From IMG/VR virus record IMGVR_UViG_3300029481_000019: 38,965 nt of DNA; one strand, written 5' to 3'. Made by a program: the position numbers and the translations under genes. Source of the DNA: a virus. Shown here in pieces: positions 8,669-36,457 of this stretch. The notes beneath the pieces are model-generated. The model saw only the letters and a program-made list of their open reading frames with translations, was not told the origin of the DNA and did not search any database. Numbering within the stretch: position 1 is the stretch's first letter; each line of letters begins with the position of its first letter.

Positions 8669-9496
8669 CTAGATACATTGATCGATTACGGCTTTGCCGC
8701 GTAACTGGTCGACCCACTTCGGCGGGATTGCCCCAAAACCGTAATACACGCCCGCGATAGCACCCGCGACAGCAGCCGTAGTATCGGTGTCGTCGCCTAA
8801 ATTGACGGCTGCGAGCACACAATCAGTATATGAGAACGTATTTAAAAAACACCAGAGCGCGGCCTCGAGCGTATGCTCGCAGTAGCCGTCGTTTTTGACT
8901 GCCTCGACAGGCCTCGATGCGATGTACCCGTATCTATGCCAGAGGTCGCCCTTCGCCGGCGTGCCGACATTGCGGATAGTCCGCAACATATCACACAGCG
9001 TTACACATGACCACTCGGCCACTGGGTGCGCATGCGTAATTGCCGAGACATCGCGTATATCATAGGGTTCGATGGGGTCGAGCATGGCGAGCGGTGCCGT
9101 CCTCATGAGCGAGCCGTTGCCGCAGTCGTCATATGACTTAGCAGGCACGCCTGTCGAAATAGCCCTCTTGCATGTCACGCCGACATCGAATACACGCCCA
9201 TCACACGTGTAGTCACCGTGCTCCAGCCATTGACGGAACCTGTAGGCGATGTCAGCCGTGTCGATGATTCCGAGCCGCTTGATGCTCGCGCATATGCACA
9301 AGGCCATCGACGTGTCGTCAGACCACGTGCCGGCATACTGCCCGTGCGTGCCGCCGTCGACCATGCCGGTGCATTCGAACGTGCCTCGCTCACGAAACTC
9401 ATATGGCACGCCGAGGGCGTCGCCGACTGCGAGCCCGTATATGCACGAGCGCATACGGTCCCTGTCGTATGATACGCAGTTATATATTGTCGACAT
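8669..9496 (-). CDS. ADP-ribosylglycohydrolase (ARH/DraG family)
   Basis: Starts MSTIYNCVSYD with a GAAGGAGGTG RBS. The N-terminal GLAVGDALGVPYEF motif and size (~276 aa) fit the ARH family. Confidence 0.8.
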   Translation of the reverse strand: MSTIYNCVSYDRDRMRSCIYGLAVGDALGVPYEFRERGTFECTGMVDGGTHGQYAGTWSDDTSMALCICASIKRLGIIDTADIAYRFRQWLEHGDYTCDGRVFDVGVTCKRAISTGVPAKSYDDCGNGSLMRTAPLAMLDPIEPYDIRDVSAITHAHPVAEWSCVTLCDMLRTIRNVGTPAKGDLWHRYGYIASRPVEAVKNDGYCEHTLEAALWCFLNTFSYTDCVLAAVNLGDDTDTTAAVAGAIAGVYYGFGAIPPKWVDQLRGKAVIDQCI

Positions 9497-9674
9497 AACG
9501 CACCTCCTTCGCCTCGTACTCGCCGACAGTACCGTCGGCGAACTCGACGAGCCCGACGGGTTTCTGGTTGTTCCCGAGGAAACCGCCACGCTGGAACCAC
9601 CCGATCAAGCTGCCGCCGTGCCCGTGCACAGTGACAGGCCTCCGCTCCATGGCCACGATCACTTCGACCTGCAT
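9480..9674 (-). CDS. small hypothetical protein
   Basis: 64-aa ORF translationally coupled (TGATG) to the upstream MazG-like gene. Confidence 0.4.
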   Translation of the reverse strand: MQVEVIVAMERRPVTVHGHGGSLIGWFQRGGFLGNNQKPVGLVEFADGTVGEYEAKEVRYVDNI

Positions 9675-20812: not shown

Positions 20813-22087
20813 CTAGTCACCTCCCATTGCAAACAGCTTCTCAGTGTAGTCGCGTCGCATAGCCAACGTATCGTAGATCTTCTCTTCGACAGTGCCTTTA
20901 GATACTAGCTCGTAATACGTGCATGGCTTGTCTTGGCCGACGCGGTGGATACGCTTCTTCGACTGCTCGAAGAGCGACGATGCCAAAGGCGGCGAGAAAT
21001 AGACGCACGTGTCTGCTTGCTGCAGGTTCACACCCATGGCACCAGACTGGTATTGAATGAGCGCGACCCCGTCGTCGGTATCGAAAAACGGCGACAAATC
21101 GTGTGCCTTGCCGTTGAGCACGCCATACGGCCTGTACCGCTTCTCCAACTCCGCCGTGAGCCCTTCGAGTTCGACGTCGAAATTGTAGAACACAACGAGC
21201 CGTTTACTCGTGCCGTCCAGCAAATCGCCGAACGCCTCGAGTTTGGCGCGCGAATACGCAGCCGCTAATTGGCGTTTCGCCGTGAGGTCGCCGAACACAG
21301 TGTCGCCGACGAAATCGCGGCCGAATGCCGTGATCACATTCGTCTTGGCGAACTTACGGTAATACTCGCTCATCGGTATGTCGATACGAATGAAACGCTG
21401 ATCAGGCAGGTCGATGACGTCGTCGGTCTTGAGGAAATCGCAACCGAGCTCCTTCATCTTGCGTACCAGCCTCTCCTCGTTCTTGTAACCCGTCACTTTA
21501 GTAATCGGGAAACCCTCACGCATCGTCGTCTCCGATTCGACGTATTGCCGCCAAAACAGCTTCTCGTCGATACGCCAGCCGAGCATGTTCAACTGCGTCC
21601 ACAGCCGTTCGTATTTGCCGTCGACAGGCGTGCCCGACAGCAAGATGAGCTCATTCGCCCTAGCTGCCAATTTCATCGCGGCCTTAGTACGCTTCGATGA
21701 TTTGTTCTGCAGCAATGACGACTCGTCGAACATTACGGCGAAACACTTCAACGCCTGAAGTTCTGGGCGCCTCCACAATAGGTCGTAATTGATCACACCG
21801 ACTGCGTCCCGTGCATGCGAGTCACCGATGCGCCGTTCAAAACCTTCCATGGCATGCGGCTTAGTCAAATTGACGACGTCGATATCATAGTAGTTTGCGA
21901 AATGGCCCATCCAGTCAGCCACTTTCGACTTTTGGCATACGACCAAGGCCAAATGCCAACACTTGTCCGACATCAATTTCTCGGCTCCGGTGAACGTCTT
22001 GCCCAGGCCCATGTCGTGGTAGAACGCGCAAGCGCGTTTACCCTCGACACGGTCAAGTGCTGCCTGCTGGTAAGCGAACAGGCCCAT
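20813..22087 (-). CDS. SNF2-family DNA-dependent ATPase/helicase
   Basis: GLGKT Walker A, DESS (DExx) box and helicase C-terminal motifs (QDKPCTYYELV...). Confidence 0.8.
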   Translation of the reverse strand: MGLFAYQQAALDRVEGKRACAFYHDMGLGKTFTGAEKLMSDKCWHLALVVCQKSKVADWMGHFANYYDIDVVNLTKPHAMEGFERRIGDSHARDAVGVINYDLLWRRPELQALKCFAVMFDESSLLQNKSSKRTKAAMKLAARANELILLSGTPVDGKYERLWTQLNMLGWRIDEKLFWRQYVESETTMREGFPITKVTGYKNEERLVRKMKELGCDFLKTDDVIDLPDQRFIRIDIPMSEYYRKFAKTNVITAFGRDFVGDTVFGDLTAKRQLAAAYSRAKLEAFGDLLDGTSKRLVVFYNFDVELEGLTAELEKRYRPYGVLNGKAHDLSPFFDTDDGVALIQYQSGAMGVNLQQADTCVYFSPPLASSLFEQSKKRIHRVGQDKPCTYYELVSKGTVEEKIYDTLAMRRDYTEKLFAMGGD

Positions 22088-22281
22088 TACACGAAAAACA
22101 TCGACTTGATTTCCTCACCAGTCAAGTCGTACCGGTCGGCGATAGCCTTGATCTCCGACTGTTTGAACTCGGCTTTGCCGTTGATCTTCCACGACAACGT
22201 CGATTCGGTGATGCCGAGCATTCGCGCGAGCCCGCTTTGGGTATCGCCGAACTCGCGGATTGTTTCATATAGGCTTTTCAT
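22087..22281 (-). CDS. Cro/Xre-type helix-turn-helix transcriptional regulator, first gene of the early block
   Basis: 64 aa with LARMLGITESTLSWKINGKAEF HTH and GAAGGAGGTGAAAG RBS. Directly downstream (in transcript sense) of iteron region B and a TAGTATAAT -10. Confidence 0.7.
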   Translation of the reverse strand: MKSLYETIREFGDTQSGLARMLGITESTLSWKINGKAEFKQSEIKAIADRYDLTGEEIKSMFFV

Positions 22282-22359
22282 CTTTCACCTCCTTCGATCG
22301 GCGAACCTCATTATACTACGTTTTCTTTCGATTTATTCGAGTATTTATAATTTTTTCGA

Positions 22360-22670
22360 AACACCTGTCACACTGTCAAACACCTGTCAAACGGCTGATT
22401 TTGGGCCTGTTTGACAGTAAGTCGCATCACTACGTCGCGTTTCTCACTGCCTGTCACACTGTCACACAGTTTTCTCCCCTATCCTTAGATAATTTGACTT
22501 TTTATATCTATATAAGGCCTATTAGATATATAGATATAAAAATATCTAATATAGGGGCCCCTTGTTGTTTGACAGCTTGACAGGTGATGAGAAACGCGAC
22601 GTAGAAATGCAAACACCTGTCACACTGGCCCTTTTAGGTGTGTGACAGGTGTTTGACACTGTTTGACAGG
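22360..22670. repeat. Iteron / AT-rich palindrome element B, with overall dyad symmetry. Forward TGTCACAC/TGTCAAAC copies lie on the left (~22366, 22374, 22385, 22452, 22460) and reverse copies on the right (~22567, 22640, 22651, 22661). A perfect 16-bp inverted repeat CTACGTCGCGTTTCTC (~22430-22445 / ~22589-22604) flanks the AT-rich palindromic core GGCCTATTAGATATATAGATATAAAAATATCTAATATAGGGGCC (~22517-22560).
   Basis: Read directly from the sequence. Homologous to element A (shared AAAATATCTAATATAGGGGC, TGTCACAC iterons, CTACGTCGCG boxes). Confidence 0.8.
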
Positions 22671-22676
22671 TAATTA

Positions 22677-22991
22677 CTACCGTAGTGCGTGGATCTGCGA
22701 CATGACGGCGTCGTACTCTTTCGGGCAGACGGCTTTGATGCACGACATGTGGTTGTCGAGTACGCCCATGAGTGCCGCATAGTCCACATTGGACGCCGCT
22801 TTCAAGAACTCAGACCCAGTGAGCTCGTCAGTGATGCGCTGTTCCATCACCGTGGCATCTACAGTAGGCTTTTTGAGGTGGTCGCGGACTATATACAGCC
22901 ACGCCAGCCTTTCGCATACGGCATAAGACGTGTCGCGCTTCTCCAGGTCGAGGATCTCCTCTTCGATGATCTCGATCGACACCATTTTCAT
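22677..22991 (-). CDS. hypothetical protein, 104 aa (last gene of the late block)
   Basis: ORF ending immediately before element B. Confidence 0.45.
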   Translation of the reverse strand: MKMVSIEIIEEEILDLEKRDTSYAVCERLAWLYIVRDHLKKPTVDATVMEQRITDELTGSEFLKAASNVDYAALMGVLDNHMSCIKAVCPKEYDAVMSQIHALR

Positions 22992-22997
22992 TCACCC

Positions 22998-23594
22998 CTA
23001 ACTGAGTTTCTTCCCGACGTCATGTAGCTTCTTCCTATATTTCTCGTGCAGCTCATGCTGCATAGGCACGATGACCTGCATGTCGTAATCGACAGCCCTC
23101 AAGTTGAGTGCCAAGCGGTCGGCATACTTGCATTCGTCGTCGACGTCTCGCACGAGCTCGCAGATCACGTGTGCCGCGGCGACTTCACCTGCATCATAGA
23201 GGTCTTTGGCCAACTTCGCATATAGCTCCTTCGTTTCGTGTTCCCACTTACACCACTCGCGCATACCCGTCTCGACAGCCTTGGACTTCGTTTCCGATTC
23301 GACCGCTTGTCGTGTGAAATTCGACCACTCGACGGGGATGACGTCAATGTGTTTTGTATTCGCCACCGGCAAAAGCTGGTTGCAGTGGTCGATGAAATAG
23401 CGGTGGATGCGGCGCATGGAAATCGTCTCACAGAGGAAATGGTACTCATGCAGTCGCTTGAAACCTTCCAAACCGAGGAAATTGTAGTAATCTGCCATCT
23501 GCTCGTGCATCATCATCATGCCGTCGATCAGGTGGTCAGATACCTTTGCGAACACATCAATTACAGGCATCTTTACCCATCTCAGTTCGTCCAT
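22998..23594 (-). CDS. hypothetical protein, 198 aa (helical; weak ferritin-like flavour)
   Basis: LEGFKRLHEYHFLCETISMRRIHRYF and ELYAKLAKDLYDAGE segments resemble ferritin/rubrerythrin-type four-helix-bundle patterns. This is speculative. Confidence 0.45.
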   Translation of the reverse strand: MDELRWVKMPVIDVFAKVSDHLIDGMMMMHEQMADYYNFLGLEGFKRLHEYHFLCETISMRRIHRYFIDHCNQLLPVANTKHIDVIPVEWSNFTRQAVESETKSKAVETGMREWCKWEHETKELYAKLAKDLYDAGEVAAAHVICELVRDVDDECKYADRLALNLRAVDYDMQVIVPMQHELHEKYRKKLHDVGKKLS

Positions 23595-23674
23595 ACTTTG
23601 CGAAAGGGATGCCTCGGCAGCATCCCTTTCTTCAGCCCTGGTCGAGATACTGCGCCAGAACTCCTATTCTGTCA

Positions 23675-24082
23675 TTAGATCTTCGTGACGACGACCGCGG
23701 TATTGTCGATCGTGACAGTCGCCGGAACGGTCGCAGTGGTGATCACAAGCGTGAGCGTCGAGGTGCTGTCGCAGCACTGGTTACGCACGATCGCCGGGAT
23801 ATTGACCGACACAATACCCGCGGCTGCCGCGGTGATGGTCTGCGTGGCGCCGGGCACGGCGACGCCGTCTTTGAACAGCGTGACGGTATATGCACCGGCG
23901 GCGGTAGGCGTGAACGTGACGCTGGCATCGACATTGAAATAGCCCTGGCCTTTAAGCAGGACGCCGTTACCCGACAGGACGGCATTGCAGCCGAAACGGC
24001 GGATAGTCGTACCGAGCGGGATATGTTTGGGTAGTGAAGCGGAGCGTACGGCCGTTGACCTACTTGAGCATATATAAGATGT
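23675..24082 (-). pseudogene. Open frame (~136 codons) encoding a Thr/Ala/Val-rich beta-sandwich-like domain (BclA/C1q-like flavour) but lacking a canonical start codon. It is a possible gene remnant or uses a non-canonical start.
   Basis: The frame is open from ~24082 to stop ~23675 (…GYFNVDASVTFTPTAAGAYTVTLFKDGVAVPGATQTITAAAAGIVSVNIPAIVRNQCCDSTSTLTLVITTATVPATVTIDNTAVVVTKI). No in-frame ATG/GTG/TTG with an RBS near the 5' end; the only in-frame GTG is at ~23857 with no RBS. Confidence 0.25.
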
Positions 24083-24104
24083 CTAGTATTAGAAAGGAAT
24101 TGAG

Positions 24105-24737
24105 ATGTCTATGTCTGAGTATTCACTTTCCGACATCGCGGCCGCTTCCGGCGAGTCCGGCTTCGGCGGCAACAATGCATGGTGGGTGATCATCCTCTTC
24201 GCGATGATTTTCGGTTGGGGCGGCAACGGCTTCGGTGGCAACCGCAATGCCGGCGAGCAACCCGTAACTGAGGCCGGTCTGTGCAACGCCATGAATTTCA
24301 ACGACCTGGCGAACCAGGTCGGGCGCGTGAACGACATGATGCAAACACAGTTCATGCAGACCAGCCAGGGCCTCGCGTCTGTCGGCTACGAGAACCTCCG
24401 CAACTTCGCGCAGACGCAGGACACCATCAAGGACGGCAACTACTCGCTGTCGTCCCAGCTCGCAAACTGCTGCTGTACCACCCAGCGCGGTATCGACTCC
24501 GTTAATTACAACGGCGCGATCAACACCGCTGCAATCCAGCAGACTGTGACCGAGCAGACGCAGAAGGTCCTCGACACCATCACCGGCAACCGCATGGCCG
24601 ACATGCAGAACCAGATCAACCAACTCCAGCTGTCCCAGGCGATGTGTGGCGTGGTACGCTACCCCAACACCTTCGCCTACAACGCCGGCCCGAGCCCGTT
24701 CTGCGGTAATGGCTGCTGCGGTACGGCAAACATCTAA
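24105..24737 (+). CDS. opposite-strand membrane protein (moron), Gly/Gln/Asn-rich with a Cys-rich C-terminus
   Basis: AAAGGA RBS 7 nt before the ATG. One TM helix (AWWVIILFAMIFGWGG) flanked by GFGGN repeats and a Q/N-rich body. C-terminal NCCCTTQRG and CGNGCCGTANI. Followed by a convergent hairpin terminator. Confidence 0.55.
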   Translation: MSMSEYSLSDIAAASGESGFGGNNAWWVIILFAMIFGWGGNGFGGNRNAGEQPVTEAGLCNAMNFNDLANQVGRVNDMMQTQFMQTSQGLASVGYENLRNFAQTQDTIKDGNYSLSSQLANCCCTTQRGIDSVNYNGAINTAAIQQTVTEQTQKVLDTITGNRMADMQNQINQLQLSQAMCGVVRYPNTFAYNAGPSPFCGNGCCGTANI

Positions 24738-24778
24738 ACGAACATTCGATCGATAAGGCATTTCCGCCTGGGCAAGAT

Positions 24779-24812
24779 AGGGGCATGGCTCAGGCCGTGC
24801 CCCTATTTCAAT
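24779..24812. terminator. Hairpin (AGGGGCATGGC...GCCGTGCCCCT) between the convergent plus moron and the minus gene 24803-25120; a bidirectional terminator candidate.
   Basis: ~11-bp stem with one G-U pair, followed by ATTTCAAT on the plus strand. It overlaps the stop of the minus gene. Confidence 0.4.
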
Positions 24813-25120
24813 AGAAAGGACAAATCATGTCGTGCAAATCTGCAATCTACACTGCCGACCCGTCTAGTACCGTGCTCACGCTGTCTACGGCTGCCGGTAC
24901 GGCTATCCTTAATTGCGTTTATATCAATACCGTGCTCACTCGCGATCTGCTCGGGACTCTTGCCCTTGTTCGCATTGATGAATTCCGCAAACTGCGGGTT
25001 GCTCTGCATCATCTGGTGCATGACTTGCTCTGGGTTTGCGTTGCGCATCATGTTGACTGCCTGCATCGCCGATTGCAGTGGGTTCGGTCTCGGTGTTCCA
25101 CCGAACAGGCTACTCGCCAT
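24803..25120 (-). CDS. hypothetical protein (MASSLFGGTPRPNPLQSAMQAVNMMRNANPEQ...)
   Basis: GGGAGG RBS. The first ~70 aa look protein-like; the last ~35 aa overlap a plus-strand ORF and the terminator, so the 3' end is less certain. Confidence 0.45.
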   Translation of the reverse strand: MASSLFGGTPRPNPLQSAMQAVNMMRNANPEQVMHQMMQSNPQFAEFINANKGKSPEQIASEHGIDINAIKDSRTGSRRQREHGTRRVGSVDCRFARHDLSFLLK

Positions 25121-25484
25121 TGTCGATCGCCTCCCTCAGATGCTTCATCGCTGCATCGAATTCATCACGTGTCACGTATTGCTGCACCTGTTCTGGCTTG
25201 TCTTCGACCGGCTGAAATGCAAAAGCACGGATGGTCGGAAAACCGGCACCATCCGTGCTTTTAACATACATGATGTCGTTATCTGCGTCGAACAGGGGCA
25301 CGACGGAATTGGGAGGCATTTGGTATGCCTTGGCCCCGTCCATGCCCGTGACACGGATCAGCTGCATTCCCTGCTGCATTCCCGGCTGCATCTGGGCGCG
25401 TTGCTGAAACTGCTGCATCTGGTCCATGGCGAATTGCTGTGGTGTGCCGACAGGTTGATACGCATTGTAGTTACCGAACATCAT
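25110..25484 (-). CDS. Gln/Met-rich hypothetical protein, 124 aa
   Basis: ORF directly downstream of the endolysin. N-terminal Q-rich low-complexity region, then a globular C-terminus. Confidence 0.5.
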   Translation of the reverse strand: MMFGNYNAYQPVGTPQQFAMDQMQQFQQRAQMQPGMQQGMQLIRVTGMDGAKAYQMPPNSVVPLFDADNDIMYVKSTDGAGFPTIRAFAFQPVEDKPEQVQQYVTRDEFDAAMKHLREAIDNGE

Positions 25485-25502
25485 GCTTTCTCCAATCCTC
25501 CA

Positions 25503-26705
25503 TCAACGGCGGGTGCCGTCTGAGATATAAGCCTGCAGGCGGTCGAGCGCGTAACCGTACATACCAGCGTAATCATCGCCGCCGTAGGTCGTGCCGTCGT
25601 CGCATACCTCATCCCAGTAGCCAGCATGCGCCACGTCCTGAGAACGATAGTAGACTTGCTTGTACTCGCCAGACGGGGTGATGTAATACATCTGGACGCC
25701 GTCGACGGTCTGACCCCACAGGCCAGCCATGCCATTTACAGAATCGTTGTAATTGGCGGCCTGCACCCAATCAAGCCAACCGCTTTCCTTGGTGTGGACG
25801 CGATAGCGCAGAGTACCACTGTCGGCCCATGCAATGAGCATGTCGTGGGAGCCGTACGGCACACCGGCAAAACCCTCACTGTTGGAGTCGTTGAAGTTGA
25901 TGACGGCACTATTCCACGCCCCGTAACGGTTATGGAGTGCATAGTGGATATTCACGCTCTTGCCCGTGGACTTAGGGAAGCTCGTGCGCGCGGCAGAAGT
26001 CGACGGCTGGTACGTACCTCCGTTTCCGTCAGTAGGTGCGATCGGCGCGATATAGCCGTTACCCATATAGGCGGCGACGTCGCGCTTGAAATCGCTCCAA
26101 GTCTTGCCGTATTTACGGAAATAACCAATCGGGTCGGTATGATCAGACCCACCCCAGATACGTGCGGCCTCGTAATGGCTGAGCAGGCGGCTGGTGTCCC
26201 AACCGTGTGCACGAAGCGTATCGCCTGCCCACTTCACAGCCTCAGTCCATTGTTTGGTGAAGTCGGTGGCATTTGTGGCGTGTGCGAGCTCGATACCGAT
26301 CGTGCACCAATTACCATTGCCGACGTGCCAGCACAAGCGGTTTTGCGGTACCGTATCGTAAACCTTGGAGCCATCAAGCTCCATGACGTCGTGCACTGCG
26401 TAGGTGTCGTCACGCGACCACAAAAGCACGTGGTTCCATGCGCTCGCACCAGGGTTAGCCGTCTCGTGGATCACGAGGTACTGCGGTGACAGCGGCCCGT
26501 GCCCGTTGCTGACGTAATTTGTGATACGCTCGTAGGCATAACTTGTTGTCGGTACTGCGAGTGCCAGTGCGATAGCAACAGTGCTGGTGGCGAGTGCCAA
26601 TCGTCGAACGATATGCACTCGCCGAGCAGGGTGAGGCTTAGGCAGACATCCAACCACATCGGCATTTGCCTTGATACCCAAATCACTCACCCTTTCCAAT
26701 AACAT
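25503..26705 (-). CDS. endolysin: N-acetylmuramoyl-L-alanine amidase (Amidase_2/PGRP type) with an N-terminal signal peptide and a C-terminal wall-binding region
   Basis: Signal-like segment RRLALATSTVAIALALAVPTTSYA. Amidase_2 hallmarks (YLVIHETANPG ... CWHVGNGNWCTIGIELAH). ~170-aa aromatic/Gly-rich C-terminal domain. Located after the holins. Confidence 0.8.
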   Translation of the reverse strand: MLLERVSDLGIKANADVVGCLPKPHPARRVHIVRRLALATSTVAIALALAVPTTSYAYERITNYVSNGHGPLSPQYLVIHETANPGASAWNHVLLWSRDDTYAVHDVMELDGSKVYDTVPQNRLCWHVGNGNWCTIGIELAHATNATDFTKQWTEAVKWAGDTLRAHGWDTSRLLSHYEAARIWGGSDHTDPIGYFRKYGKTWSDFKRDVAAYMGNGYIAPIAPTDGNGGTYQPSTSAARTSFPKSTGKSVNIHYALHNRYGAWNSAVINFNDSNSEGFAGVPYGSHDMLIAWADSGTLRYRVHTKESGWLDWVQAANYNDSVNGMAGLWGQTVDGVQMYYITPSGEYKQVYYRSQDVAHAGYWDEVCDDGTTYGGDDYAGMYGYALDRLQAYISDGTRR

Positions 26706-26714
26706 TGTCCATCA

Positions 26715-26927
26715 TTACTCACTCGTCGGTTTCGCCGTCGCGGTCGTCACACCGAGAAGTGCACCGACGAACGTACCTGTGGCAGTGATCACCGTCACTG
26801 CGATGCCAGTCGGCTCCCAATTGACGGCGGTACCGACGGTACCGACAAAAGTCGCTACTGCGGGCAAGGCAACGAGGCCGACCCACTTGAGAATATTATA
26901 TGCCTTATCGGGCAGAAGGTATTGCAT
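26715..26927 (-). CDS. holin (two predicted transmembrane helices)
   Basis: 70 aa with two hydrophobic helices and a polar C-terminus, immediately upstream of the endolysin. Confidence 0.6.
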   Translation of the reverse strand: MQYLLPDKAYNILKWVGLVALPAVATFVGTVGTAVNWEPTGIAVTVITATGTFVGALLGVTTATAKPTSE

Positions 26928-26936
26928 AATTACTCC

Positions 26937-27269
26937 TTAGTCTTGATGCGCATCCATGATTTCATTATACATGTGTGTACCCGGCCCGTTGAGCCCCAAT
27001 TCATCATGATAATGATGATATATATCATCTACTTGCTGTTTTTCAGCAGCTGAGCATGGATGCCCTTCAATGACAAATCGCCGGTGTAGATCTTCGAGTC
27101 GGTAAAATAGTAACTCACCGAGCATAGCACGATTTTGTACGCGTTCCTCGTGCTCACGACACGACAGGTTATACAATCGCCCAGTGCTGGTTTTGATTGC
27201 ATTCAGTAGCCAACCGATTATCGTACCCATAATCGTGGTCACGACAGTCATCACTATATATTCAAACAT
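26937..27269 (-). CDS. membrane protein with one N-terminal TM helix (second holin / lysis regulator candidate)
   Basis: YIVMTVVTTIMGTIIGWLL helix followed by a charged cytoplasmic domain. Sits in the lysis cassette. Confidence 0.4.
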   Translation of the reverse strand: MFEYIVMTVVTTIMGTIIGWLLNAIKTSTGRLYNLSCREHEERVQNRAMLGELLFYRLEDLHRRFVIEGHPCSAAEKQQVDDIYHHYHDELGLNGPGTHMYNEIMDAHQD

Positions 27270-27332
27270 TGAATCAATATCTCTTAAACGACAAATGTTC
27301 TCCGTACTAGTATTGACGTGATATACGGAATG

Positions 27333-28130
27333 CTAGCCGTATATCGCGGTGATTGTCTCTTTGTCGCCGGCAGCGAGCGTAAGCGCGGAGCCGAGCCCGG
27401 GTGACTGGTATGTGTTGTACCCGACCTTCTCGAATGTCACAGTCTCGCCGGACACACGTGCCGTCGTGTTGGCTGTCGTAACCGAATAGCCGTAGTTGCC
27501 GCCCATTGCGCCAGACACGACGTGCGTCCCGTCCGTCGTGGGCATAACGGCGTGCTGTCCGTGCGAGAAGACGACAATAACCACTGCACGTTTCTTGAGC
27601 CCTGGCACAGTCACCGTGCCGTTGAAAGTGATTCCCGGCCTCGCCAAGACACGGAATACAAAATCCCTGAGCGTGGCGAGCGAGGCCACGGTGTCGAAAA
27701 GTTTGACTGGCGTGCCGACGCTGATACCGTTCAACGGGATGCGCCAGAGCTTCAAGTCATTCGAGGTCGTCGCGGGGTCCGCCGCCGTCCCCGTGCTGGG
27801 CGTGCCCTTGATGACGACGGGTGTGATACTCTCGATGCCCGCGCCAGTCTTGGCATAGCGTGCCACGACCAAGTCGTTACGCTTCTGGCCCTGCATGCCA
27901 GACTGGACCGTCAGCGAGGTTGCAGCCTGGTTCCAAAATCTTTTGCCGCCGACCATACCGACACCGGTGCCGAGCGTCGCGCTGTTCGCGCTCGCCATCG
28001 TGAGCTTAAAATCGTCACCGTACTCCAGCACGCAGTTTGCTTTGCCGATAGTCGCGACGTTGAGCGCCGACAGGTCGTCCGAGCTGATGTGCTTGGTCCC
28101 CGTCATGCCATCCACGATTTCAAATGCCAT
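27333..28130 (-). CDS. tail-tip structural protein (possible receptor-binding / fibre-associated protein)
   Basis: 265-aa Gly/Thr/Ser-rich beta-type sequence between the fibre genes and the lysis cassette. Confidence 0.45.
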   Translation of the reverse strand: MAFEIVDGMTGTKHISSDDLSALNVATIGKANCVLEYGDDFKLTMASANSATLGTGVGMVGGKRFWNQAATSLTVQSGMQGQKRNDLVVARYAKTGAGIESITPVVIKGTPSTGTAADPATTSNDLKLWRIPLNGISVGTPVKLFDTVASLATLRDFVFRVLARPGITFNGTVTVPGLKKRAVVIVVFSHGQHAVMPTTDGTHVVSGAMGGNYGYSVTTANTTARVSGETVTFEKVGYNTYQSPGLGSALTLAAGDKETITAIYG

Positions 28131-28134
28131 GTTA

Positions 28135-28365
28135 CTACTCCTTCGCGTTGCTCATGAACTGCTGGAACTCGCCGTCGTGCTTGGCTGCGAGCTTCTTGTA
28201 CTCGTCCGTACACCCCTTGCACAGCAGGCGCGTGGCCCTGCTGCCGTACTGGTCGAAGCGCTCGACCTCGCGCCAGTCACCAGCCGCCGCAGCACCTTGC
28301 TGGAGGTACGCGTCCGCGCCGCATCGGTCGCAGGTGTAGTGGGTGAAATTCTCTGTCTTTGCCAT
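28135..28365 (-). CDS. small Cys4 (CxxC...CxxC) zinc-ribbon protein
   Basis: 76 aa with HYTCDRCG and CKGCTDE motifs, between the two fibre-region genes. Confidence 0.45.
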   Translation of the reverse strand: MAKTENFTHYTCDRCGADAYLQQGAAAAGDWREVERFDQYGSRATRLLCKGCTDEYKKLAAKHDGEFQQFMSNAKE

Positions 28366-28375
28366 GTTCTCTCCT

Positions 28376-29068
28376 TTACTTAGTTCTCAGCCACGTGTGC
28401 GGCCCGATACTCGGTACCCGCACCCATGTACCACTGATGTTGTTCGGGTCAAACGAGCCGTCTGTCTCCAAGTACTCGCCGACACGATGGGCCATGATCC
28501 ACGTCGCGTTCGGGTCGAGGGTATCGAGGATGTGCTGCCACGCCGTCCACGAAGAGTCCGACCCGCCGCGCCGCCACCATATGTCTGCGCCGCTCATAGC
28601 GACCTGCTTCGGGTACCCGCCGCTCTTTTCGCCCCATTGCACGAAGGTGACGAGGGTCGCATAGGTCTCGCCGCTCGAAAGCCCGATGACCTTGGTATTC
28701 TTGAACTCGACCACAGTCTCCTTCGGGTGGTTCTTCATATACCAGCTCGGCGGCTGGTTGTCGTTCCTCGTGTCCTTGATCTCGCCGCCGCTTGGCCCCT
28801 GCGGGCCCATCGGCCCTTGCGGGCCTGTCGGGCCTTTAGGCCCCTGGATGCCCTGCGGTCCTTGCGAGCCCGCGGGGCCAGTGGGGCCTGTCGGCCCCTG
28901 CTTGCCCGTTGGCCCTTGCGGTCCTGTCGCGCCCGCGTCGCCTTTCGGACCCTGCGGGCCGGTCGCGCCCGTAGCGCCTCGCGCGCCGGTGGGCCCTTGT
29001 GGTCCTGTCGCGCCAGTATCACCCTTGGGGCCCTTGATGTTACCTACAAGGTATTTAGCCATGATCAC
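28376..29068 (-). CDS. tail fibre protein with an N-terminal collagen-like (Gly-X-Y)n triple-helix region and a C-terminal globular (putative receptor-binding) domain
   Basis: About 30 consecutive GXY triplets ([22 protein letters not shown]...), then an aromatic-rich ~120-aa C-terminal domain. Confidence 0.7.
28750..29035. repeat. collagen-like Gly-X-Y triplet-repeat coding DNA (fibre gene)
   Basis: Recurring 9-bp GGxCCxxxx periodicity. Related at the DNA level to the two blocks inside the Tal gene. Confidence 0.7.
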
Positions 29069-35337: not shown

Positions 35338-35706
35338 TCAAAACGAGGTGATAAACTCTGCCGTCACATTGATATGGCGGCGCTTGATCTTATCATCTGC
35401 TGTGTCACCCATGCTCTGGCAGAACGGCGAGCCTTTTTTCAGTATGACGCCGCCGCCGTCACATGGGATACACTTGCAGCCGATTAGTGCCTTTGAGACT
35501 TCACGCGCTTTCGCATTCGGCTCCGCCTCGGAGTCGCCACGATACCAAATGTCCATCGACAACGCGACTTCCCCGCCCCAGAAATCATCGACTGCGAGCT
35601 CGTACGTGATATACGGGAACTCCGCATTGTCTGGTACAGATGTCGCCGCATACGCTGGAATCGAGAAGCCCGAGAAGAATTCATAGATAGTAGCTTCAGG
35701 CGTCAT
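35338..35706 (-). CDS. tail completion / neck protein (probable start MTPEATIYEF at the ATGA overlap)
   Basis: Position between the head-tail adaptor and the major tail protein. ~122 aa. Confidence 0.45.
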   Translation of the reverse strand: MTPEATIYEFFSGFSIPAYAATSVPDNAEFPYITYELAVDDFWGGEVALSMDIWYRGDSEAEPNAKAREVSKALIGCKCIPCDGGGVILKKGSPFCQSMGDTADDKIKRRHINVTAEFITSF

Positions 35707-36050
35707 GATAGCTTCCACTCTTCCGCCGACACCTGCTCGAAACTGAACGTCGCCACATCGGGTGTACGCATATCGTCCCCGTTGGAAGTCACACGGAACA
35801 CTTGGCCGTCACTGACACGCTTGAAAACGTCATGAAATTCGAGTCGCGCGTTTGGGTCGGTAGTCACCGTGTAGACGTTCGATACGCCCTCTTTTTCAGC
35901 GACGCGTGCCGCCAGGGTGGTGTCGCGGACAATGGCCGCATCGAAGGCGGCACCGTCGACCCACGTGGTCGTCCACCCGCCTTCACCGTCGCTCACGCGC
36001 TTCTTCTCCATGAGCACGCAAGGCTCTTTGAAAGTATCAATCAACGTCAT
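35703..36050 (-). CDS. head-tail adaptor / head closure protein (probable start MTLIDTFKEP)
   Basis: ~115 aa. Position and size fit the SPP1 gp16-like class. Confidence 0.45.
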   Translation of the reverse strand: MTLIDTFKEPCVLMEKKRVSDGEGGWTTTWVDGAAFDAAIVRDTTLAARVAEKEGVSNVYTVTTDPNARLEFHDVFKRVSDGQVFRVTSNGDDMRTPDVATFSFEQVSAEEWKLS

Positions 36051-36457
36051 GGCAGTTTCCTCCAACGATTGAGGCGTCGGCGAAATGCGTCTTGCCATCG
36101 CGCCGGCATGCCGTCGGAAGCAGTGGCCTTCGTATACGAATACCCGCCGAACGACTCAGAAGTATATGCGGAGTCGGGGTTGGCTTTGCGCCACGCCTCG
36201 ATTTCGGTCGCGATGTCAACGACCGCCTTCGGCACGGCCAGTGCCCACACCTCACCATCGAATACCTCATCAGTGAGGTCCGACGTCGGGTATTGGTGCA
36301 GGCCGTCGTTGAACACACTGCCGACGATGCGGTAGTACTGACCCTTCTTGACGAAGCCATGCGGGAGGGTGAGCTCGCCGTCCATGACGGTGAGCTCACC
36401 TGCGAGGTAATCGCATTCGAACCAATTGTGGATCTCTGCGAGCAACTCCTCCAGCAT
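36047..36457 (-). CDS. head-tail connector protein (gp6/gp15-like)
   Basis: 136-aa acidic protein immediately after the major capsid gene. Confidence 0.5.
   Translation of the reverse strand: MLEELLAEIHNWFECDYLAGELTVMDGELTLPHGFVKKGQYYRIVGSVFNDGLHQYPTSDLTDEVFDGEVWALAVPKAVVDIATEIEAWRKANPDSAYTSESFGGYSYTKATASDGMPARWQDAFRRRLNRWRKLP

Follow-up and report, generated by a model that had tools for sequence, protein, structure and literature searches.

An 885-bp inversion as the probable origin of a lone opposite-strand gene in a compact tailed-phage genome

The 38,965-nt stretch of viral DNA analysed here (IMG/VR record IMGVR_UViG_3300029481_000019, hereafter the window) is a complete ~39-kb tailed-phage genome. 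Nearly everything is encoded on the minus strand, including the terminase, portal, capsid, tail, collagen-like fibres, a Dp-1-type holin, an Amidase_2 endolysin and the replication genes, and the sole convincing plus-strand gene is F210 (24105-24737, 210 amino acids (aa), ATG start). We conclude that F210 is, with high probability, an ordinary member of a conserved, co-directional gene module that was flipped in this lineage by one illegitimate inversion. An initial annotation had taken it for a moron, that is, an independently acquired and autonomously transcribed opposite-strand gene for lysogenic conversion or superinfection exclusion, a reading that did not hold.

The inverted segment is 885 bp long (24023-24907) and was delimited by blastn against seven related contigs of 28-39 kb (L001-L007) that encode an identical or 97%-identical F210. 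These contigs align with the window in reverse over 21001-24023 and 24908-28500, and in the forward direction over 24023-24908. All are collinear, with the genes in the order holin, amidase, a 124-aa gene (F124; 89 aa in L001), a 75-aa gene (F75), F210 and a 141-aa gene (F141), followed by a 189/197-aa gene, a 104-aa gene, a helix-turn-helix (HTH) gene and SNF2. The segment starts with ATGTTTGGG, the last three codons and stop of F75, and finishes with GGTACGGCTATC, codons 24-27 of F141; one break lies four codons ahead of the F75 stop and the other after F141 codon 27.

One of the two cut genes, F141, can be put back together. The 5' fragment of F141 (24827-24907, plus strand, codons 1-27, MSCKSAIYTADPSSTVLTLSTAAGTAI) keeps its own ribosome-binding site (RBS) and now runs on into antisense junk (open reading frame (ORF) 24827-25264), and the 3' fragment (23675-24019, minus strand) holds codons 28-141 and the stop (114 codons). 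The latter is part of the minus-strand frame from 24082 to 23675 that the initial annotation had singled out as start-less, and this frame is indeed open, with its first ATG, GTG or TTG only at 23857. An inversion was suspected because MSCKSAIYTADPSSTVLTLSTAAGTAI at 24827 on the plus strand resembles the missing N-terminus of that frame. Rejoining 24827-24907 (plus) to 24019-23675 (minus) gives back an uninterrupted protein of 141 aa, in agreement with the homologues of L001-L003 and L007. F75 is cut after codon 71: codons 1-71 (24908-25120, minus strand) are intact, and QMFG-stop is replaced by a 34-residue antisense-derived tail, making a 105-aa ORF (24803-25120). F210 was flipped along with its RBS and downstream stem-loop. 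The inversion therefore explains F210's odd strand, the start-less frame and the over-long upstream ORF together, and the opposite strand of F210, as read from the sequence, is a secondary feature that the inversion produced. F210 now opposes the coding direction of the genome with no recognisable promoter of its own. We infer that nature has in effect knocked out several genes of the module in this genome, which would make the module dispensable for propagation.

F210 itself is a real gene, as had been proposed for this ORF on the otherwise empty strand. It matches PHROG 16490 (phrog_16490, E = 2.8e-22, 80.7 bits, residues 15-172) and has homologues in 4,141 clusters at 90% identity, or 1,072 representatives at 50% identity (E <= 1e-3). 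The overlapping antisense ORF (24123-24761, minus strand) has no family match in Pfam or PHROG; the plus frame is the true coding frame of the locus, and the minus-strand frame does not emerge as the conserved one. The RBS is strong, as claimed: the Shine-Dalgarno sequence AAAGGA, read at 24093-24098 on the plus strand, stands 6 nt before the ATG. Downstream lies a stem-loop (24775-24808, plus strand, 15-bp stem) in an 89-nt spacer with a folding energy of -34.1 kcal/mol (z = -4.5). The feature had been drawn as 24105-24812, which takes in this hairpin, whereas the coding sequence stops at 24737. The hairpin, placed at ~24779-24812, had also been described as a convergent insulator; it exists, but it is a family-conserved stem-loop belonging to F210 and no insulator. 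Of 67 distinct F210-F141 spacers, 48 have a folding energy of -15 kcal/mol or lower; across the family the structure of the stem-loop behind F210 is conserved and its sequence is not, and a U-run often follows it. We interpret it as a putative terminator or attenuator between F210 and F141.

A census of the module with iterative profiles collected 124 loci from IMG/VR, GTDB genomes, ENA and GenBank. F124 lies upstream of F210 on the same strand in 120 of the 124, F141 downstream on the same strand in 113, and F75 upstream in 81; a module partner on the opposite strand was found in none of them, and F210 is co-directional with its neighbours in every relative compared at the DNA level. The order is F124, F75 in some loci, F210, the hairpin/terminator and F141, all co-directional. 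In the window, F124 (25110-25484, minus strand; phrog_21718, E = 5.7e-16) is the conserved upstream partner. The module is carried by phages of about 36-142 kb. In the 44-81 kb contigs L017 and L018, from a phage bearing a putative diversity-generating retroelement (DGR), F124, F210 and a BclA_C-like gene of ~135 aa are adjacent and co-directional, and the same arrangement is found in the 142-kb phage L019/L020. Just upstream of the module in L017 (5111-6124 and neighbouring genes), a reverse transcriptase (RVT_1) sits beside a DUF6273 protein, a DGR-like arrangement.

Two cultured Clostridium perfringens phages, XP41-N3 and CPD1, encode a row of proteins of 146 aa, 77 aa, ~205-211 aa and 125 aa, all annotated as hypothetical. 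Profiles detected the F124, F75 and F210 families in them and did not detect the 125-aa ORF that is next in order. CPD1 has two adjacent ORFs of ~205 aa (L022 5182-5805 and 5812-6429; CPD1_038 and CPD1_039) where XP41-N3 has one F210 homologue; these may be a tandem duplication of the F210 family, and only the second was matched in tblastn. Assignments of family members to metagenome-assembled genomes are mostly to Clostridia, and the cultured carriers infect C. perfringens.

The moron reading drew on the opposite strand, the strong RBS and the downstream hairpin, as well as on a membrane-anchor-like segment in F210 and the position at the end of the late block. Against this stands the conserved synteny of the 124 loci, always co-directional and collinear in the relatives compared. 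The variable presence expected of a moron is not seen, F210 standing between F124/F75 and F141 throughout the loci, nor is a deviant base composition (GC of 0.561 in the 24-25 kb bin versus 0.550-0.560 in the adjoining bins). As a transcription unit, F210 has the conserved terminator-like stem-loop, and a scan in either orientation found no sigma-70-like promoter upstream of it, although the promoter types of the host may differ. F210 has no PADLOC match. The genome had already been noted to have no obvious lysogeny genes, and none of the ORFs examined pointed to an integrase or repressor module. The inversion also fully accounts for the strand and for the split neighbour gene, and we consider a moron extremely unlikely.

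The junctions bear on how the inversion arose. In the collinear state the breakpoints (marked by slashes) read AATTAAG/CAG/ATGTTTGGG and GGTACGGCT/ATC/CCGCTCGG. The inverted state lacks CAG and has ATC at both junctions, in opposite orientations, as GAT at 24020-24022 and as ATC at 24905-24907, so that the inverted duplicate GAT (plus strand) replaces the ancestral CAG codon at the left junction. CAG is found at this place in 12 of the 12 collinear loci that match the search pattern. The two breakpoints of the collinear state (AATTAAG/CAGATG and GGCTATC/CCGCTC) have no inverted repeat in common. Pfam searches of 19 window ORFs found no recombinase domain, and the remaining window ORFs are recognisable from sequence as structural or replication genes; an enzyme encoded by the host is conceivable. 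Because there is no boundary inverted repeat, no recombinase was found and the junctions are imprecise, the inversion is an illegitimate one and not the work of a site-specific switch. The junctions point to break-and-rejoin or to template switching during replication as the cause of the 885-bp flip, and away from a site-specific recombinase.

Two candidate sources of homology at the junctions were tried and rejected. A 14-nt inverted repeat of the window (24001-24014 and 24895-24908) was considered as the crossover, and the left breakpoint (24020-24023) lies outside its arm; this repeat is a by-product of a direct repeat within F141 (GTAI-PL-GTTI), one copy of which was flipped. The other candidate was an ancestor with GAT in place of CAG, which would give a 5-nt GGATA/TATCC microhomology; the 12 pattern-matching collinear loci all read CAG.

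The same junctions can be set against two further readings. A programmed invertible switch, whether a phase-variable inverton, shufflon-like or intragenic, would toggle F141/F210 or recode F75. It would fit an inversion that ends within two coding sequences, as in the intragenic invertons known in gut bacteria (PMC10028968), the occurrence of three different inversions in the same cassette among related genomes, and the presence close to both junctions of a perfect 12-nt repeat, TACCGTGCTCAC (24868-24879 and 24928-24939, 20-29 nt either side of the right junction). However, besides the collinear breakpoints without inverted repeats and the ORFs without a recombinase domain, the loss of CAG and duplication of ATC make an exact reversal impossible, the three inversions differ in their breakpoints and two of them come with deletions, and the inverted state gives junk products only. 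Moreover, an un-inverted F141 with the exact sequence of this lineage is absent from a collection of 15 billion proteins. A switch is thus very unlikely. The source is a metagenomic contig, judged here from the assembled sequence, and the inversion could in principle have been made by the assembler or by chimeric reads. Yet both reciprocal junctions are present, no repeat at them is as long as the k-mers of the assemblers, which an assembler error would be expected to need, and the 3-nt junction changes do not look assembler-made. Exact lookup of the amidase recovered the inversion lineage, with the window's exact endolysin encoded on six public contigs. Among these, L147 (ENA ERZ27272222, 39,007 nt, MEGAHIT k119) is 100% identical over 8.2 kb and L148 (ENA ERZ917738 = ERR1190532, PRJEB12123, 39,015 nt, k127) over 6.0 kb, each including both inverted junctions. 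The 105-aa F75 fusion product is recorded on four contigs (JGI/IMG, Logan and ENA), and a 60-aa remnant ORF on a JGI contig of 38,965 nt, as long as the window. Searches with the inverted-junction patterns gave no match in IMG/VR and three in JGI metagenomes, none of them similar to the window. Since identical junctions occur in other public assemblies, made with different k-mers or pipelines (k119 and k127, with the products in Logan and JGI too), an artefact is scarcely credible, and the inversion is real and illegitimate and probably fixed.

Several observations weigh against our interpretation, in whole or in part. In the reconstructed ancestor, TACCGTGCTCAC would form an inverted repeat 21-25 nt from both breakpoints, an arrangement with a chance expectation of ~7e-4, and a homology-assisted step in the inversion is possible, though the arms miss the crossover points. 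The evidence for the inversion comes from assembled contigs, and both orientations could possibly exist in one population; the assemblies that share the inversion may also derive from one sample, limiting the claim that the lineage has spread. F210 itself is intact, and a promoter that went unrecognised in the 82-nt spacer upstream of it might still drive its expression. The C. perfringens phages have the module among their early/recombination genes and not beside lysis genes. Finally, the hydrophobic segment of F210 is short, its AlphaFold2 (AF2) model is of moderate quality (predicted local distance difference test (pLDDT) of 66), and the protein has no structural or functional-family match.

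That this corner of the genome is a rearrangement hotspot, as the initial annotation had supposed, is borne out by at least two further inversions, by deletions and fusions, and by three point knock-outs, none of which has a counterpart in a control gene. In contigs L103 and L104 the stretch corresponding to 4531-4867 of L002 is inverted, and there are deletions besides; L107 has an inverted segment of F124, F75 and the 5' part of F210 plus a deletion, and L105 has deletions in the module. Searching with the 3' fragment of F141 recovered chimeric products from close relatives. F141 is joined in these to the F210 C-terminus (P0268), the N-terminal half of F210 (P0283), the antisense of F210 (P0293), F75 (P0269 and P0286), F198 (P0368 and P0369) or F104 (P0290 and P0367), and F75 is joined to the F210 C-terminus in P0393. 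The junctions show 1-9 nt of microhomology. In some lineages a stretch of F210 and one of F141 are identical at 17 of 18 nt (AAGCTCGGTGCGACTGTCC versus CCGCTCGGTACGACTGTCC), encoding KLGATV in F210 alleles and PLGTTV in F141 (L107 3540-3640, L105 4100-4130, P0283 and P0269); this direct repeat is probably behind the recurrent F210-F141 deletions that end at F141 codons 28-33. The inverted piece in L107 (2669-3554) is 79% identical to L002 and its flanks about 90-93%, and because of this lower identity it may have been acquired from a different phage lineage by recombination.

The point knock-outs of F141 are found in three related contigs from different Logan runs: the start codon is probably lost in L149 (2760-3183), Cys38 is changed to a stop (TGC->TGA) in L150 (1863-2288), and 1 nt is deleted at nt 159 in L151 (285-709). 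As a control we used the head-closure gene (35703-36098), counting clusters at >= 84% identity for both genes. Aberrant lengths were seen in 18 of the 32 F141 clusters and in none of the 25 control clusters (Fisher's exact test, p = 1.6e-6), and sequence-verified rearrangements in nine and none, respectively (p = 0.003). The independent inactivations within one phage lineage comprise three inversions, more than eight deletions/fusions, a nonsense mutation, a frameshift and a probable start-loss. Most simply, rearrangements survive in the cassette because it is the main dispensable block of a compact genome. Selection for loss is possible. In a wider proposal, the cassette would be a widespread, envelope-associated functional system of gut-Firmicutes phages, pairing a Cys-rich coiled coil anchored in the membrane with a TNF-like trimer of the exosporium type, and its recurrent inactivation in one lineage would reflect selection for loss, for example as an escape from a host defence that senses one cassette protein; we regard this combination as unlikely.

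The anatomy of the F210 protein agrees with much of what had been read from its sequence. The proposed transmembrane helix corresponds to a hydrophobic segment, AWWVIILFAMIFGWG (residues 25-39, mean Kyte-Doolittle 1.94), with a predicted helix at 25-36, and GFGGN repeats border it on both sides (DNA direct repeat 24143-24173 / 24212-24242). The Q/N-rich middle is there (Q+N = 26% in residues 51-180), and so are two Cys clusters, at 122-124 and at 200, 204 and 205, with further cysteines at residues 60 and 181. The AF2 model, built from 48 sequences, shows one unbroken helix from 65 to 179, with the Cys-rich tail disordered. Conserved across the family are the N-terminal SLSDIAAVT, the Gly-flanked hydrophobic core with its 13-15-mer (mean Kyte-Doolittle 2.56), the CCC inside the long helix and the C-terminal CGVVRYP...AG.NPF...C. 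The N-flank is acidic (family mean net charge -2.9) and one conserved Arg follows the anchor, which weakly favours an N-out/C-in topology.

Remote-homologue searches led to the PHROG 16490 family and to no functional match: F210 had only a sub-threshold match to DUF6215 in Pfam, none in NCBIfam, only noise in a profile search of the PDB, no match at E < 1 in a Foldseek search of BFVD and none by megablast against GenBank phages. The literature on BclA-like phage proteins and on C. perfringens virion proteomics held nothing bearing on the F210 family.

The downstream partner F141 is better resolved. The start-less frame had been credited with a BclA/C1q-like character, and this is confirmed at the fold level on P0270, a homologue 92% identical to the window fragment, whose AF2 model (pLDDT 87.9) is a TNF/C1q jelly roll. 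Its top Foldseek matches in the PDB are 3twi, 3tyj, 2r6q and 1wck (template modelling score (TM) 0.74-0.77, E down to 3e-10), followed by 7r5i/8d02 (ExsFA/BxpB) and F-BclA, with phage fibre and spike knobs lower. This close homologue of F141 is thus predicted to have a ten-strand jelly-roll fold superposable on the BclA C-terminal domain. The rejoined F141 of the window has no match to PF18573 (BclA_C) at E <= 1 in Pfam, and homologues at 54-65% identity carry precomputed matches to that family.

What the module does can be approached only tentatively. In the model that we put forward with low confidence, F210 would be anchored in the membrane by its N-terminus and would have a coiled-coil stalk of ~115 residues and, at its C-terminus, a Cys-rich knob; late in infection it would work at the cell envelope together with F124 and a cytoplasmic TNF-like F141. 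A less likely role is that of an accessory virion fibre, with F210 as a fibritin-like trimeric coiled-coil shaft and F141 as a TNF-like receptor-binding knob, dispensable for plaques. The single ~115-residue helix would suit such a shaft and the F141 fold also matches phage tail-fibre/spike knobs (9k09, 8ke9 and 9eul); this phage has genes for collagen-like fibre proteins, in L019 the module comes after a head-fibre/collagen gene and in L017 before capsid genes, and frequent natural loss would suit a non-essential adsorption aid. The family-wide hydrophobic 13-15-mer is, however, atypical for a shaft, a terminator separates F210 from F141, the families have no structural-protein PHROG annotation, and the early/recombination-gene setting in the C. 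perfringens phages does not fit either. Less likely again is a spanin-like lysis accessory, in which F210 would be an anchored coiled coil resembling an i-spanin that completes envelope disruption after the endolysin. The predicted architecture is Rz-like (an N-terminal membrane segment, a coiled coil and Cys), and the module adjoins holin and endolysin genes here and in L019, but not in CPD1 or XP41-N3. There is no lipoprotein partner, F141 beginning MSCKS without a signal peptide and the sequences of F75, F124 and F141 containing neither signal peptide nor lipobox. Family members come from phages whose known hosts are Clostridia, which are monoderm, and the cassette is frequently lost.

Other genes and features flank the module. 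The lysis cassette upstream of it consists of the endolysin (25503-26705, minus strand) and the holin (26715-26927, minus strand). The endolysin has an N-terminal extension of ~60 codons that ends in a signal-peptide-like RRLALATSTVAIALALAVPTTSYA/YE, which suggests that the protein may be secreted or signal-anchored; its relatives are called at 293-405 aa, varying with the start chosen. Downstream of the module, F198 (22998-23594, minus strand) encodes a helical protein weakly similar (E = 0.005) to a ~100-aa protein that follows the module in another phage and that has a weak rubrerythrin match in Pfam. After F104 (22677-22991, minus strand) comes the intergenic control region of the early region. 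Family searches gave no informative matches for F124, F75, F198 and F104, and nor did PDB sequence searches for F124 and F198. The region between F104 and a Cro-like HTH gene (22282-22676) holds iteron-like motifs (CCTGTCACAC / TGTCAAAC / TGTGACAGGTGTTTG) arranged as nested inverted repeats, with a perfect AT-rich palindrome (22499-22514 / 22527-22542) at their centre. It self-aligns in reverse at about 72% identity, contains a TTGACA-N18-AAAAAT promoter-like site (22379-22350, minus strand) and is probably an early operator and/or origin region. Finally, the early/replication region encodes a 306-aa ADP-ribosylglycohydrolase (8669-9589, minus strand; Pfam PF03747, E = 6e-58), which may reverse an ADP-ribosylation-based host defence or toxin.

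The inversion is an ordinary structural variant and overturns nothing in current understanding; what deserves following up is how syntenic the module is and how recurrently it has been inactivated in nature. A strongly syntenic module is now defined in phages of about 36-142 kb, cultured C. perfringens phages among them, and its natural knock-outs suggest that it is dispensable yet widely retained. CPD1 and XP41-N3 are culturable systems that carry homologues (CPD1_036-040 in CPD1). For the annotation of compact phage genomes, a lone opposite-strand gene beside a start-less frame should not be called a moron until a local inversion has been looked for.

Among known systems, the segment resembles site-specific invertible segments (the G segment of Mu with Gin, the C segment of P1 with Cin, shufflons and invertons; PMC10028968) in that it is an inverted piece of DNA in a gut phage, its ends lie within coding sequences and the products of the cut genes are changed. 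It differs from them in having no flanking inverted repeats, no invertase found, imprecise junctions, no functional alternative product and breakpoints that vary between events. Phage morons are autonomous promoter-gene-terminator insertions, for example in lambdoid late operons. Like them, F210 is small and accessory, sits close to where the late block ends and is followed by a hairpin, but it is constant at its position, has a normal composition and no promoter that could be found, and is co-directional in relatives. The i-spanin Rz has an N-terminal membrane segment, a long coiled coil and cysteines. F210 shares with it a predicted N-terminal membrane segment, a long coiled coil, conserved cysteines and a place near lysis genes, and differs in having no o-spanin/lipoprotein partner, presumed monoderm hosts and no sequence or profile similarity.

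With the exosporium proteins BclA (C-terminal domain), ExsFA/BxpB and F-BclA, the F141 homologue shares its fold (TM 0.77 to 3twi/1wck), and like ExsFA/BxpB, F141 is a stand-alone domain of about 140 aa. Unlike them, it is phage-encoded, has no collagen stalk and is only 12-20% identical, the likeness being predicted for the monomer. F210 and F124 match PHROG 16490 and phrog_21718, entries that carry no function, and the fixed order F124, (F75), F210, stem-loop and TNF-like F141 is newly worked out here. The b region of lambda is a dispensable, deletion-prone accessory region. The cassette is comparable to such regions as a stretch between the late and the early genes in which natural isolates tolerate deletions and rearrangements, with junctions at 1-9 nt of microhomology; unlike them, it is a conserved multi-gene module present in very diverse phages and not lineage-specific cargo.

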